This document shows, piece after piece, positions 795-50,443 of a DNA stretch of 64,000 nt (its first letter is position 1; every line of letters begins with the position of its first letter). A model generated the notes under the pieces. It was given only the letters and a program-made list of their open reading frames with translations. It was not told the DNA's origin and ran no database searches. The position numbers were made by a program, and so were the translations under genes. Source of the stretch: Eledone cirrhosa. Taxonomy: Eukaryota. The stretch spans positions 46,438,001 through 46,502,000 of the forward strand of contig OZ024741.1 of the NCBI GenBank assembly GCA_964016885.1, written 5' to 3'.

Positions 795-992
795 AAGATG
801 GATTCAGTTTGAAACTGGTTAGACCATTACTCAGCAGAGTACTCGATACTGGGGATAGTAGAGTATGGTTATATTAGAAAGAGTCGGGGCCCGACTGATA
901 AGCTTTTGCCGTTTCAACAGCTAGTTCCATACTGTCTGTAACTCTGGAACTAGCTGTTGAAACGGCAAGAGATCAGCCGCCAGCCCGACTCT
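795..992. mobile_element. Fold-back Penelope-like terminal fragment
   Basis: Inverted arms TTGCCGTTTCAACAGCTAGTTCCA / TGGAACTAGCTGTTGAAACGGCAA between microsatellites, with the tail motif on the minus strand at ~835-870. Confidence 0.5.
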
Positions 993-1071
993 CTCTCTCT
1001 CTCACTCTCTCTCTCTCTCACTCTCTGTCTCTCTGTCTCTCTGTCTCTCTCTCTCTATATATATATATATA

Positions 1072-1380
1072 TAGTAAAATAAAATAAAACAAAACAAGGA
1101 CGATTGGTTACTCCTTCATTACGTTTATTGGTTGGTGACATGCGTTTCGCAGATTACAGAGTCGGGCTAGATCGATACAGATCGAACCTTGAACTGATCA
1201 GTGGCAAAACGCGTGTCACCAACCAATAAACGTAATGAAGGAGTAGCCAATCGTCCTTGTTTTATTTTATTTTACTATAATACACTCTGTCTAGCTCTAC
1301 ACCTCGACACTGAAGTGAACCTAAACATCAAGTGCTCACTCGGGTGAACCTACAGTAACTCCAAGTTACACTCCCTGGAT
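1072..1380. mobile_element. Fold-back Penelope-like terminal fragment with hammerhead 3' half
   Basis: Arms 1072-1148 / 1205-1278. The minus arm reads GAAAC-GCAT-GTC-ACCAACC-AATAAA. A ~100-nt tail runs into (TA)n. Confidence 0.65.
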
Positions 1381-1467
1381 ATATATATATATATATATAT
1401 ATATAGGGAGAGAGAGAGAGAGAGAGAGAGAGAGAGAGAGAGAGAGAGAGAGAGAGAGAGAGAGAGA

Positions 1468-1712
1468 GGATAACAAGATATCGTTATAGGTAATCCAATT
1501 AGAGGTTGTGAATACTTCTTATCATGGATAGTTTAGCGTACGGCGTTGTATGACTCAACAAGAGGTTTCCTTAGGTGACGAGTTTATGATTTCACTTGTA
1601 TTCCTATGTAAGTTTATCTTGGAGTAATAAAATTGAAAAAGTGGAGAATAACATGGTCAACAGTTTTTTTTTTTTTTGTACTGTTGACCATGTTATTCTC
1701 CACTTTTTCAAT
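1468..1712 (-). mobile_element. Penelope-like terminal fragment, same family as 7727-8336, with short fold-back
   Basis: 1468-1650 is the reverse-complement homolog of 8150-8336. Hairpin GAAAAAGTGGAGAATAACATGGTCAACAGT / ACTGTTGACCATGTTATTCTCCACTTTTTC. Confidence 0.6.
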
Positions 1713-1730
1713 TATATATATATATATATA

Positions 1731-2910
1731 TCTAGCAGTCTCTCTCTCTCTCTGTTAGCCTCTTCCTCAACTTTCACTCACTCACTCTCTGTCACTACCT
1801 CTCCTCCTCCCCTTTCTTCCCGTTTGACCTGTCCGTAATCCTTTTCTCGCGGGCACTTGGCCAAGCCGGTATGAATTTTTTTTCTCTCTCTCTCGTCTGC
1901 GACTTCACAGAACTTATGTTTACCGAATTCGCAGACCAGACCCCTTCTTCCTCCCGTTAGACCTGTGCGAAATTCCTTCCTTGCTCACATTTCAACCAGG
2001 TTTGATGGTCTTTATTCTCTCGTTCACGATTCCACCGAATTTATATTCATAGAAATCTGGGACTTGTGTCTTCTTCATCACTTTCTGTTGCTTAAACCAT
2101 TTTGTTTGTTTACCCTAGCGTCCCCCTTATTTACGTGTCCCAACGACTTTTTTTAGCCGTTGCTCGCACCAACCTGAGGTATATGGCCTTTAATGCGACG
2201 AAATGCCTACGACGGTTGGAAGGCCACTGATGAGGACAAACTTTTTCATATGTAACCCATTTGCAGCGCCCCAGCTCCATTATTATCATATTTACACATA
2301 TAATTTTTCCTCCGCTGCCACCAGTCTGTTTCGTTCTTTGTGTCTTTACCCTTTCTAGCAGTCTCTCTCTCTCTGTTAGCCTCTTCCTCACCTTTCACTC
2401 ACTCACTCTCTGTCACTACCTCTCCTCCTCCCCTTTCTTCCCGTTTGACCTGTCCGTAATCCTTTTCTCGCGGGCACTTGGCCAAGCCGGTATGAATTTC
2501 TTTTCTCTCTCTCTCGTCTGCGACTTCACAGAACTTATGTTTACCGAATTCGCAGACCAGACCCCTTCTTCCTCCCGTTAGACCTGTGCGAAATTCCTTC
2601 CTTGCTCACATTTTAACCAGGTTTGATGGTCTTTATTCTCTCGTTCACGATTCCACCGAATTTATATTCATAGAAATCTGGGACTTGTGTCTTCTTCATC
2701 ACTTTCTGTTGCTTAAACCATTTTGTTTGTTTACCCTAGCGTCCCCCTTATTTACGTGTCCCAACGACTTTTTTTAGCCGTTGCTCGCACCAACCTGAGG
2801 TATATGGCCTTTAATGCGACGAAATGCCTACGACGGTTGGAAGGCCACTGATGAGGACAAACTTTTTCATATGTAACCCATTTGCAGCGCCGCAGCTCCA
2901 TTATTATCAT
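1731..2910 (+). repeat. Tandem duplication (~620-bp period) of a non-coding repeat between (TA)n tracts
   Basis: 1731-2290 is nearly identical to 2354-2910. A diverged inverted copy lies at 17640-18184. Confidence 0.85.
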
Positions 2911-3002
2911 ATATATATATATATATATCATCCGGGAACAGTTCTGTATGGCGCCAGTTCGTGATTTGAACTCGGGAATTTTATATTCTCCAAGTGAGAA
3001 GA

Positions 3003-3086
3003 ACCCTCTGACGAAAGTTTCCTTCTCAATGGTGTTCCGCATGGATTATCCATTTATTTTGAGACTTGAAACCGCACGGTAAAGGT
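3003..3086 (+). ncRNA. Type-I hammerhead ribozyme with extended loop II
   Basis: ACCCT-CTGACGA-AAGTTTC...GAGACTT-GAAA-CCG CA CGG-TA-AAGGT. Stem I has one mismatch. It lies in a ~230-bp island between (TA)n tracts. Confidence 0.75.
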
Positions 3087-47655: not shown

Positions 47656-48018
47656 GTATGTATGTATGAATGTGTGTGTGTATGTATGTATGTATGTATG
47701 TGGTGATGGTGGTGGTCATGGAGGTGACAGTTGATGTTGTTTGGCTTTTTTTTATCGTTTGATGTCGCAGATGTTGTAGATGTTGGTATTGTTCCTCTTG
47801 ATGTTGTTTTAGATATTGCTGTTGGTATTCATTCTGATGCTGTTGTTGCTATAGACATTGGTGCCGGTGTTGTTGTTGTTGTTATGGATTTTGTAGATGG
47901 GGTTGAAATTTGGTCGTTTTGACTGAGTGATATATATATATACATACATATATATATATATATATATATATATATATATATATATATATATATATATATA
48001 TATATATATATATATATA

Positions 48019-48204
48019 TAACAAAGGAATTGTGGTAAGGAACCAGATGGACCATAACGCACCAGAGTACTCAATACTTCGGCTAGTAGAGTGGGAAATA
48101 GGAAAAAGTATGACCCCGACGGCAGAGCTCAAGCCGTTTCGACGGCTATTCCTGGACTAGCCCCGACGGCTTGAGCTCTGCCGTCGGGGTCATACTTTTT
48201 CCTA
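48019..48204. mobile_element. Short fold-back copy of the 41422-42373 family
   Basis: Arms 48097-48138 / 48165-48204 between (TA)n tracts. Confidence 0.7.
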
Positions 48205-48697
48205 TATATATATATATATATATATATATATATATATATATATATATATATATATATATATATATATATATATATATACACACACACACACATATCCAAC
48301 ACACAGTAGGGAGCACGGTAGGAGGTCAGTGACTTTATTATTATTGTCGTTATTGTTGTTATGTTGTTTTTTTTCGTGCAATTGCCATACTCGATAACGA
48401 GGGGGCAGCCATCATGTATATATGTATGTATGTATGCATATATGTATGAATGCATGCATATATGTATGTATGCTTATATGTATGAATTTATGTACCTATG
48501 TATGTACATGTGAGTGCATATGTGTATTTTTTTCACATATGTATGAAAGTATCTCTGTCTAAATGTGAAAGTAAGTCTGTATGTCTGTACCACACATGTG
48601 TTTGAAAGTATATACGTGTATGTGCGCGCGCGCGCGTGTGTGTGTGTGTGAAAGAATGATTATGTATTTGTGTATGAAAGTATGTATGTATATATAT

Positions 48698-49292
48698 GGT
48701 CACCAGTTGGTGCTACTGGTAACATGTATCCCAGTACAACCTGTCTCATGGTCGGGTCGTTGGCGACTAAACTGGCAACCCCACCAAGGTTTTTTGGTGA
48801 GGAGGGTAACTTTGGACATCCTGCAGGACTAAAACCAAAACCTGTCAAAGGGCAAAGGAGCTCTTAAGAGTCAATGGCCATCCAAAATCACTGGGAGAGA
48901 TGACCCCTTAGCCTTTGTCAAGGCAGAATTCTAGAAGGAAAACTCTGATATAACACCTGCAACGCCGATGGTATCCAATGATGTTCACTTGTTATTCTTC
49001 TTGGTATATATCATCTTGGTTAAGAGAGTGGGACTGGCTTTGTGCAATGCCTTTGCTCACTATAAAAGCTTCACGGCACAGGCATTGCTTTATATCTGAA
49101 GATCTCTCTGCACTTGTCGTTTCATGGGCCCAGCACTGTGTGTCAATAATTGTCACAAGTGTAGTGTTTGTACCAGAGTTTTCAAGTCGCTGGCTGGACT
49201 AAAAAGTCACACTCGTTCAGCGAATCGGTAGGGGCTCTCCTACATGGATATAAAGTAGTGGCCGTACTTGAAAACGAGTTGGCAGCCACCAT
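48698..49292 (+). mobile_element. Family N copy, near full length
   Basis: Near-identical to 25914-26523. Confidence 0.85.
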
Positions 49293-50183
49293 ATATATAA
49301 GAATATGTGTATGTATGTATATAAATGTTAGCCTATTTCTTCGTTTTTTTAGTGTGTATACATGTATGTATATAAAAATACGTGTATGTATGTAACTTTT
49401 AGCCTATTTATTCGTTGCTTGTATGTGTATACATGTATGTATATAAGAATATATCTATGTATGTATGCATGTATGTATATTTGTATGTATGTATGTAAAT
49501 TTTAGCCTATTTCTCGTTTCTTGAGTGTGTATATATGTGTGTGTACATGTGTGTACACATGTGTGTTTACATGTGTGTATACATGTATGTTATGTATACA
49601 TGTGTGCATCTGTTTGTTCTGTGTAGTTTTACAGCCATTAATATCTTGTGGGTATGAAATATATCAAACGTTTTCATGGGTTACATTGAATGATGCCAAA
49701 CCATCCTTTTTCTGCTTCCCCTTCAATGAATCAATTTAATGTGTAACACACGCTCGCACATACAAACATGCACACACACACACAAAATAAACACACACGC
49801 GCACATACGCGTATATATATAAAGACACACATGTACATATGCGTATATATATATACATAATATACATATGAATGTATGTATGTTTGTATATATATATATA
49901 TATATATATAAGTACATAAATAATTCTCTCTTCTCTCTCTCTCTCTATATATATATATATATATATATACATTTATTTACATTACATAGATATATGTACA
50001 TACATACACACACACACACACACACACACACACACACACACACACACACACACACACACACACACACACACACACACACACACACATATATATATATATA
50101 TATATATATATATATATATATATATATATATATATATATATATATATATATATAGTTATGTAATAAACAACATAAGGCAATTA

Positions 50184-50244
50184 TTTCATTTACCAGTGGT
50201 TTCTTAAAAGCAAAAAAATGTTGCTTTCAATCATCAGAATGAAA
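50184..50244 (-). ncRNA. Type-I hammerhead ribozyme (left arm of fold-back 50153-50345)
   Basis: Reverse complement of 50253-50313 with changes only in distal stem/loop II. Confidence 0.8.
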
Positions 50245-50252
50245 AAATCCTG

Positions 50253-50313
50253 TTTCATTCTGATGATTGAAAGCAAAATTCTTTTGCTTTTAAGAAACCA
50301 CTGGTAAATGAAA
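50253..50313 (+). ncRNA. Type-I hammerhead ribozyme
   Basis: TTTCATT-CTGATGA-TTGAAAGCAAAA ttc TTTTGCTTTTAA-GAAA-CC act GG-TA-AATGAAA. All three stems and a canonical core are present. Confidence 0.88.
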
Positions 50314-50443
50314 TAATTGCCTTATGTTTTTTATTACATAACTATTAAGCTCTGTTACCTACATAGAGCACTCTTTTTTCCTGGACTTTTCCGACGGAAT
50401 TACTTCATATATATATATATATATATATATATATATATATATA

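Follow-up and report, generated by a model that had tools for sequence, protein, structure and literature searches.

A duplicated bulged hairpin beside the two insertion ends of Hydra-clade Penelope-like elements in Eledone cirrhosa: a candidate mark for internal starts of reverse transcription

The DNA analyzed in this study, hereafter the window, is a stretch of 64,000 nucleotides (nt) from Eledone cirrhosa (GenBank assembly GCA_964016885.1, contig OZ024741.1, positions 46,438,001 to 46,502,000 of the forward strand), in which a short motif, RCTC followed by GAGY, recurs close to (TA)n in insertions of Penelope-like elements (PLEs) of the Hydra clade. A preliminary description of this DNA cited seven strings of the motif, and all of them (7/7) were found in the window sequence, the minus-strand copy noted as ~865 ending at 864. 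The motif was also said to lie shortly before (TA)n, which agrees with the 34–59 nt between motif end and (TA)n at the seven cited sites. Its proposed position downstream of a hammerhead and AATAAA holds in part: of the seven cited sites, three have a type I hammerhead upstream and four have AATAAA in the preceding 150 nt. With a custom descriptor, a type I hammerhead was found 25–63 nt before the hairpin at 4 of 9 window sites (three cited sites and that at 41469; chance 1.2%). The best 150 of 172 Rfam rows for the window were all below the gathering score, consisted mostly of microsatellite noise and included no hammerhead.

Most of the motif sites are inside foldback insertions with the order (TA)n, inverted arm, center, direct arm, unpaired tail and (TA)n. 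Near the start of the window, the motif, which we term hairpin 1, is found at 838..864 on the minus strand (ACTC/GAGT, TC bulge, TAC/GTA), 44 nt from (TA)n and within a foldback insertion at ~794–990, the other arm of which terminates with a (CT)n run 15 nt ahead of the stem. Hairpin 1 at 20152..20179 (minus strand; ACTC/GAGT, TA bulge, CAG/CTG), with the arm end 9 nt upstream and (TA)n 59 nt away, belongs to a (TA)n-flanked foldback insertion with a 96-nt tail (20093..20517, minus strand); by eye only, this copy resembles L320, a family linked to an open reading frame (ORF), and the predicted cleavage site of a type I hammerhead at approximately 20238..20297 (minus strand) is 63 nt before the hairpin. 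The copy at 20803..20830 (minus strand; CAG/CTG) has no inverted arm and follows a type I hammerhead-like motif (approximately 20876..20940, minus strand) with predicted cleavage 50 nt before hairpin 1; its family has a Hydra endonuclease upstream in L019. On the plus strand, 25706..25728 is a degenerate copy (ACTC/GAGG, TAC/GTA, TT bulge) in which the first pair is broken (A.G), and 41306..41331 is a family B hairpin in a foldback insertion at 40752..41381 with an 84-nt tail. Family A is represented twice on the minus strand, by 48066..48092 in a short foldback insertion (48021..48202, 80-nt tail) and by 41469..41495, which the earlier list did not cite and in which one upper pair is mutated; the latter is in a foldback insertion at 41424..42371 with an 80-nt tail and a hammerhead-like motif at ~41516–41611. 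Read-through copies of families A and B (for B, elsewhere) contain a second hairpin, described below, and a Hydra ORF. The family F hairpin at 50349..50372 (plus strand; GCTC/GAGC, TA bulge, TGT/ACA) has its arm end 6 nt upstream, in a foldback insertion at 50155..50406 (plus strand) with a 64-nt tail and a type I hammerhead at ~50255–50311.

A strict motif pattern fits 5 of the 7 cited sites, compared to 0.01 expected from 100 dinucleotide shuffles, a post hoc figure given that the pattern was built from these sites. A near-identical pattern matched the 3.0-Gb genome 96,154 times (47,722 + 48,432), compared to 389 times (226 + 163) for a reversed control, which refutes a chance origin of the motif.

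Further analyses revealed that the motif is a bulged hairpin, with an RCTC/GAGY lower stem, a 2-nt bulge on the 3′ side and a covarying upper stem. The earlier suggestion that ACTC and GAGT can pair is thus borne out as part of a conserved and covarying structured element by a shuffle test, slid controls and RNAalifold. When 20 families were compared with RCTC and the first GAGY as the sole anchors, the outer pair was A-T in 11, G-C in 8 and G-T in 1, so that it is Watson-Crick in 19/20 families and GCTC/GAGC is, as had been proposed, a true compensatory change. The three upper-stem positions paired in 18, 20 and 17 of the 20 families, solely at a bulge size of 2, and 49 of the 60 upper-stem pairs were Watson-Crick, compared to 23.9 ± 3.7 for shuffled halves; none of 20,000 shuffles reached 49. 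From 15 aligned short hairpins, RNAalifold recovered the same seven pairs, four of them with compensatory changes, and pairing was found in 97.1% of the alignment cells (22–49% in slid controls). The bulge is T followed by T, A or C in 19/20 families, and CTC/GAG, the bulge T and the following RCT are conserved as sequence. The mis-anchored cluster 24 was kept in the 20-family covariation test and dropped from the arm-end and strand counts, cluster 18 (1-nt bulge) was left out of the G-U/A-C strand count, and row c11 of alignment A2 was kept although misaligned. Variant lower stems at the usual offset, GTTC/GAAC or GATC/GAAC (L048:3515–4380, L321:368–1909) and GCCC/GAGC (L165:85–490), suggest that the central CTC/GAG can change too.

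Hairpin 1 spans 19–81 nt among the 20 families, and its loop is therefore free. Window copies with long loops include a GCTC/GAGC hairpin at 7500..7545 (minus strand) in a foldback at 7462–7696, with members of the same family at 30523–30568 (plus) and 40541–40590 (minus), and a hairpin at 1553..1625 (minus strand) in a foldback at 1406–1712, with a member of its family at 8183–8248 (plus). Two further GCTC/GAGC hairpins with a TT bulge are on the minus strand at 10683..10704, 71 nt from (TA)n, and at 40125..40163, where the upper stem is long and AT-rich. GCTCC/GGAGC GCTCCCACAGGAGCACT-type hairpins at 24807 and 15854 were excluded from the motif count, as they have no bulge; each is followed by ACT (24807–24823 and 15854–15870, minus strand) and sits in another repeat that ends in (TCTA)n.

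To relate the hairpin to the insertion ends, foldbacks were called with no use of the motif, initially in unselected DNA of 664 kb (60 foldback calls from 369 inter-(TA)n segments) and then in a larger set of 329 sequences (1.73 Mb). This set, part of which had been obtained through motif or family searches, yielded 1,035 segments and 112 tailed foldbacks in 38 clusters. Counting each cluster once, by a single representative, 20 of 27 tails of at least 60 nt contain RCTC no more than 26 nt from the arm end and, further on, GAGY; the same holds for 0/11 shorter tails and for 4.4% of shuffled tails. In 66 of 82 copies (19 clusters), the inverted arm ends 6–9 nt ahead of RCTC; the distance from the motif to the tail end varies from 26 to 147 nt. 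The motif is therefore in a fixed register on its 5′ side, relative to the end of the inverted arm and not to the downstream (TA)n. Hairpin 1 thus opens the one-sided PLE tail. The motif-bearing insertions consist of an inverted, 5′-truncated copy and a one-sided tail, as do the complex insertions of endonuclease-containing (EN+) PLEs, with tails of mostly 64–166 nt that are outside the 30–40 bp given for the latter. Their target is (TA)n, some ends being in (CA)n or (CT)n, and at the inner junction, where the inverted arm ends, a match of at least 3 nt to (TA)n is found in 52 of the 82 copies, compared to ~6% at control positions.

Foldbacks with short tails and without RCTC/GAGY were also observed in the window, at 23773–24372, 27064–27300, 14689–16538 and 10301–10592, with tails of 34–59 nt where measured. 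Some of them match the 3′ ends of Neptune-type elements, and short-tail foldbacks may have a start signal of their own.

The preliminary description regarded the carriers of the motif as unrelated families and pointed to Neptune and Naiad for comparison. They are instead deeply diverged homologous families of one clade of PLEs, Hydra, described by Craig et al. (2021; PMC8557442) with the marks RW(K/R), DKT, CxCx5C plus a GIY-YIG endonuclease at the C-terminus. In a tree of reverse transcriptases (RTs) of this genome, the carriers, whose RT cores are 32–62% identical between families, form one clade apart from the Neptune-type RTs (support 100/100), and blastn among eight family segments around the hairpin gave no cross-hits. 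Domains read from motifs indicate a single ORF, of 784, 834 or 745 amino acids (aa), with an RT followed by a C-terminal GIY-YIG endonuclease, and not the N-terminal endonuclease of Naiad; Pfam had no match on the L076 ORF pieces. RWK or RWR is found at the N-terminus in L121, L309–L316 and families A, B and F, DKT replaces DKG in 7/7 ORF-linked families, and the CxCx5C linker is present in L121, L309–L316, L036 and L386, the linker region not being covered in every family. By-eye alignment A1 of the endonucleases, from which L013 was excluded for a stop codon, has invariant C105, C108, C133 and H135, with CxxC and CxH near the endonuclease end as in the Hydra clade, no CCHH motif and, unlike the Neptune-type matches, no CxxC within the GIY-YIG core. 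The Neptune marks, DKG and a CX2–5CxxC linker, are absent from the motif-bearing ORFs and present in L322–L325. Tandem periods of ~3.18 kb and ~3.54 kb are slightly over the Hydra norm of <3 kb, which is a tendency and not a strict criterion.

In the window, the copies at 48066 and 41469 (family A), 20803, 41306 (family B) and 50349 (family F) belong to families linked to Hydra ORFs. Families B and F were at one point taken for non-autonomous, as the 30 best DNA matches of each had no linked ORF, yet read-through searches linked both to Hydra ORFs. A young motif-bearing family has intact 784-aa ORFs. L121 (e.g., 2182–2193 and 5358–5369), the youngest Hydra family with an intact ORF, has many identical copies, a hammerhead core that appears degenerate by eye and a weak second hairpin. 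A GIY-YIG family search returned mostly Neptune-type elements among the 30 of 150 matches examined, and these were used as a contrast. Two RT ORFs in the window, at 34042–37503 and 55393–57891, were rejected as the source of the motif, being those of other retrotransposons. The region at 34042–39297 (minus strand), with a 1153-aa APE-endonuclease/RT ORF and an upstream, frameshifted ORF1-like region, looks L1/Tx1-type; that at 55393–57891 (plus strand) is an 832-aa frame of a non-LTR retrotransposon with RVT_1 and zf-RVT and, by eye, the look of a C-terminal restriction-like endonuclease.

The motif is not confined to this genome. Among 10 metagenome loci encoding Hydra-like proteins, none with a blastn match to the loci of this genome, L404 and L406 have a hammerhead, hairpin 1, the second hairpin and an ATG, and L405 and L409 have one hairpin each, so that the motif is present in 4/10; the 3′ copy of L404 ends at (TA)n, 6 nt before the register of the second hairpin. 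By eye, the motif is also present in three of the six new Hydra consensi of File S7 of Craig et al. (2021; PMC8557442), Hydra-2_Amil (coral), Hydra-2_Ajap and Hydra-1_Ajap (sea cucumber), the last with both hairpins, and a variant hairpin is found in Hydra-1_Crog (copepod). Given these observations, it is hardly credible that the motif reflects chance or simple homology inside one recent family: all ORF-linked carriers do fall in one clade, but, beyond the genome-wide counts, their RTs are 32–62% identical with unalignable flanks, the stems carry compensatory changes and other organisms have the motif. The two outcomes that the preliminary description had named as telling against a conserved element, no covariation or a single recent family, are thus not what was found. 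An origin in one recent family is refuted, while ancient homology belongs to the reading favored below.

Full-length tandem copies place hairpin 1 in the leader ahead of the ORF, and the tail is therefore the start of the next tandem unit. In 7/7 ORF-linked families with read-through copies, a second hairpin, (R/C)CTC...NN GAGC (hairpin 2), lies a short way ahead of the ATG, 6–10 nt beyond the point where the (TA)n junction starts, which gives the leader the order hammerhead (where one was found), inner end, hairpin 1, tail, outer end, hairpin 2 and ATG. Insertion copies depart from the read-through reference mostly 2–8 nt before hairpin 2, microhomology included. As hairpin 1 follows the inner end and hairpin 2 follows the outer end, both insertion ends are situated a short distance 5′ of a hairpin. 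In 5/5 insertions with both ends visible, one end is inner and the other outer, and among 30 endonuclease-bearing arms, 16 end at the inner site and 14 extend into the tail. A Hydra insertion at 11507–13540 of the window illustrates this arrangement. Its long arm (11507..13436, minus strand), with the C-terminus of the endonuclease (13046–13468) and the 3′ untranslated region (UTR), ends at the inner site, and the opposite arm of 105 nt (13436..13540, plus strand) begins inside the hairpin 1 loop and stops at the outer site. The inner-ended arm, of 1.9 kb, contains sequence that the outer-ended arm does not, and the inverted arm was therefore not copied from the direct arm.

Short arrays also carry the leader signals. 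Family F has five tandem matches with a 183-bp period (G000:C2:169702715–169703474), probably a retrozyme-like non-autonomous array with both hairpins, and a 257-bp tandem of family A (L332–L333, G000:C1:27009635–27009920) contains the 3′ half of the hammerhead, both hairpins and the first ORF codons. In some Hydra families, (TA)n or (TG)n tracts are found within hairpin 2 or the 3′ UTR (the L309–L312 leader; the 3′ UTRs of families B and F), and such families may therefore seed new target microsatellites.

The position of the hairpins shortly ahead of the ATG raises the alternative that their role in the leader is in translation, transcription or RNA stability, with the ends set solely by pairing between (TA)n and UA-rich patches in the vicinity. 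The microhomology at the junctions is real; UA patches are, however, plentiful in AT-rich UTRs, and yet the ends fall 6–9 nt before the stem across families with spacers of 64 to >160 nt, which makes this alternative very improbable. We consider it fairly probable instead, with the leader layout, the covariation, the spacing, the presence of an inner and an outer end in each insertion and the independent arm lengths all observed, that the hairpins are protein-binding RNA marks that would fix two internal RT starts, one per DNA end, the two cDNAs being joined and the spacer left as the tail. In this scheme, which rests on sequence comparison, a read-through tandem transcript would be bound at each hairpin, presumably by the RT/EN protein, and the GIY-YIG domain would cut both strands of (TA)n. 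Each DNA end would act as primer for cDNA synthesis a few bases to the 5′ side of one hairpin, aided by 2–6 nt of UA-rich pairing, and the two cDNAs would then be joined head to head. Two such starts and head-to-head joining would therefore give an inverted repeat that has a tail on one side only, this tail corresponding to the spacer that separates the starts. More tentatively, Hydra PLEs may use double target-primed reverse transcription (TPRT), in which each of the duplicated hairpins docks one RT and both (TA)n ends prime ~6 nt upstream of their hairpin.

A precedent is PAc, a Poseidon PLE of Anolis, which cuts both strands of AT-rich DNA and begins reverse transcription internally at two sites bounding the tail; the start lies in an AC-rich stem loop, and the reaction depends on RNA located 3′ of the start (Frangieh et al., 2024; PMC11167929). 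In another explanation, the hairpins direct formation of RNA 3′ ends, by a cut or termination just 5′ of them, and ordinary TPRT proceeds from those ends. Although it predicts the same two end points, read-through copies across both hairpins are common and PAc begins internally and needs RNA 3′ of its start, and we regard it as quite improbable. It is also rather unlikely that the hairpins are read as DNA, whether single-stranded cDNA, a displaced strand or an extruded duplex, by the GIY-YIG endonuclease, whose cut ~6 nt away would resolve an intermediate and set both ends. Recognition as DNA would accord with the sequence conservation of CTC/GAG, the bulge T and the following RCT and with a G-U bias that is too small to fix the strand; moreover, Craig et al. 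(2021; PMC8557442) ascribe the tail to EN-mediated resolution and Frangieh et al. (2024; PMC11167929) cite the Penelope tail as necessary for EN recognition. The two in vitro RT starts of PAc nevertheless coincide with its tail ends (Frangieh et al., 2024; PMC11167929), both ends of the insertions here join (TA)n directly with UA-type microhomology, and the slight wobble excess favors the sense strand.

Several observations weigh against RNA marks at internal RT starts. In single-sequence minimum free energy folds, the probability of the lower stem exceeds 0.6 in only 11 of 20 tails, and the strand evidence is weak (G-U 4 versus A-C 1 among 54 cells). Seven of the 27 long-tail clusters are without the strict motif, two of them having variant stems by eye, and the shuffle tests overstate independence because the families are related. 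The youngest family has a degenerate hairpin 2, with C.C as the first pair and an upper stem of 2 bp. No motif was seen in 6/10 metagenome loci, three of which are too short, nor by eye in Hydra-1_Amil and Hydra-1_Obim (2/6 published consensi; PMC8557442). Junction microhomology of at least 3 nt is also found in 8/19 short-tail copies, and the PAc starts are at non-homologous sites (PMC11167929).

The Hydra clade and the foldback-plus-tail structure are already known, and the elements reported here are new members of the clade. Similar to the Hydra elements of Craig et al. (2021; PMC8557442), they have a single ORF, (TA)n targets, tandem and inverted structures and, at 4 of 9 window sites, a type I hammerhead; they differ in tail length (64–165 versus 30–40 nt) and very high copy number, and their units of 3.2–3.5 kb are slightly longer than the usual <3 kb. 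No such hairpin is described in the text of that paper available to us, in which "hairpin" has 0 occurrences and "stem" 2, one of them concerning hammerheads. PAc shares the two internal starts bounding a tail, the double-strand cut of AT-rich DNA and the stem loop at the start, but it belongs to a different clade and starts inside the ORF, and the accessible text reports no twin conserved motif or primer homology (PMC11167929). In its template as printed, a bulged stem that includes CUC/GAG is visible by eye immediately past the inner start, without a twin, which is a lead only (PMC11167929). Within the literature searched, including passages of PMC7229834 and bioRxiv 10.64898/2026.07.22.740005, with Repbase, Dfam, figures and subscription papers outside the search, there is no description of the twin hairpin or of its offset from both ends.

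The Neptune-type PLEs found in this genome likewise form (TA)n-flanked foldbacks with a one-sided, leader-derived tail, as in L324, where a tail of 38–40 nt without the motif corresponds to the leader of a Neptune-type ORF. They differ in DKG, the CX2–5CxxC linker, tails of 33–40 nt and a separate branch; RCTC/GAGY is found in 0/11 short-tail clusters, only some of which are tied to an ORF. In long interspersed nuclear elements (LINEs) such as R2, 3′ stem-loops, and in telomerase the RNA elements flanking the template, are small RNA structures that recruit the RT and fix the start of copying. The LINE structure is within the copied region, upstream of a terminal start; the Hydra hairpins, in contrast, are 3′ of a proposed internal start, are not copied from that start and are present in two copies.

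How PLE inverted repeats with a one-sided tail originate is a decades-old question. The lone in vitro study revealed internal starts without a conserved signal, and the twin hairpin is a candidate for such a signal at a fixed offset from both ends. The motif also serves as a marker with which to classify ~100,000 short repeats of this genome. If the proposed role is true, it would show how a telomerase-related RT picks an internal template start, and any RNA could be marked for insertion at (TA)n. The hairpin would then be a portable, telomerase-like RNA mark, a structure 3′ of an internal template start, in a sister lineage of TERT.

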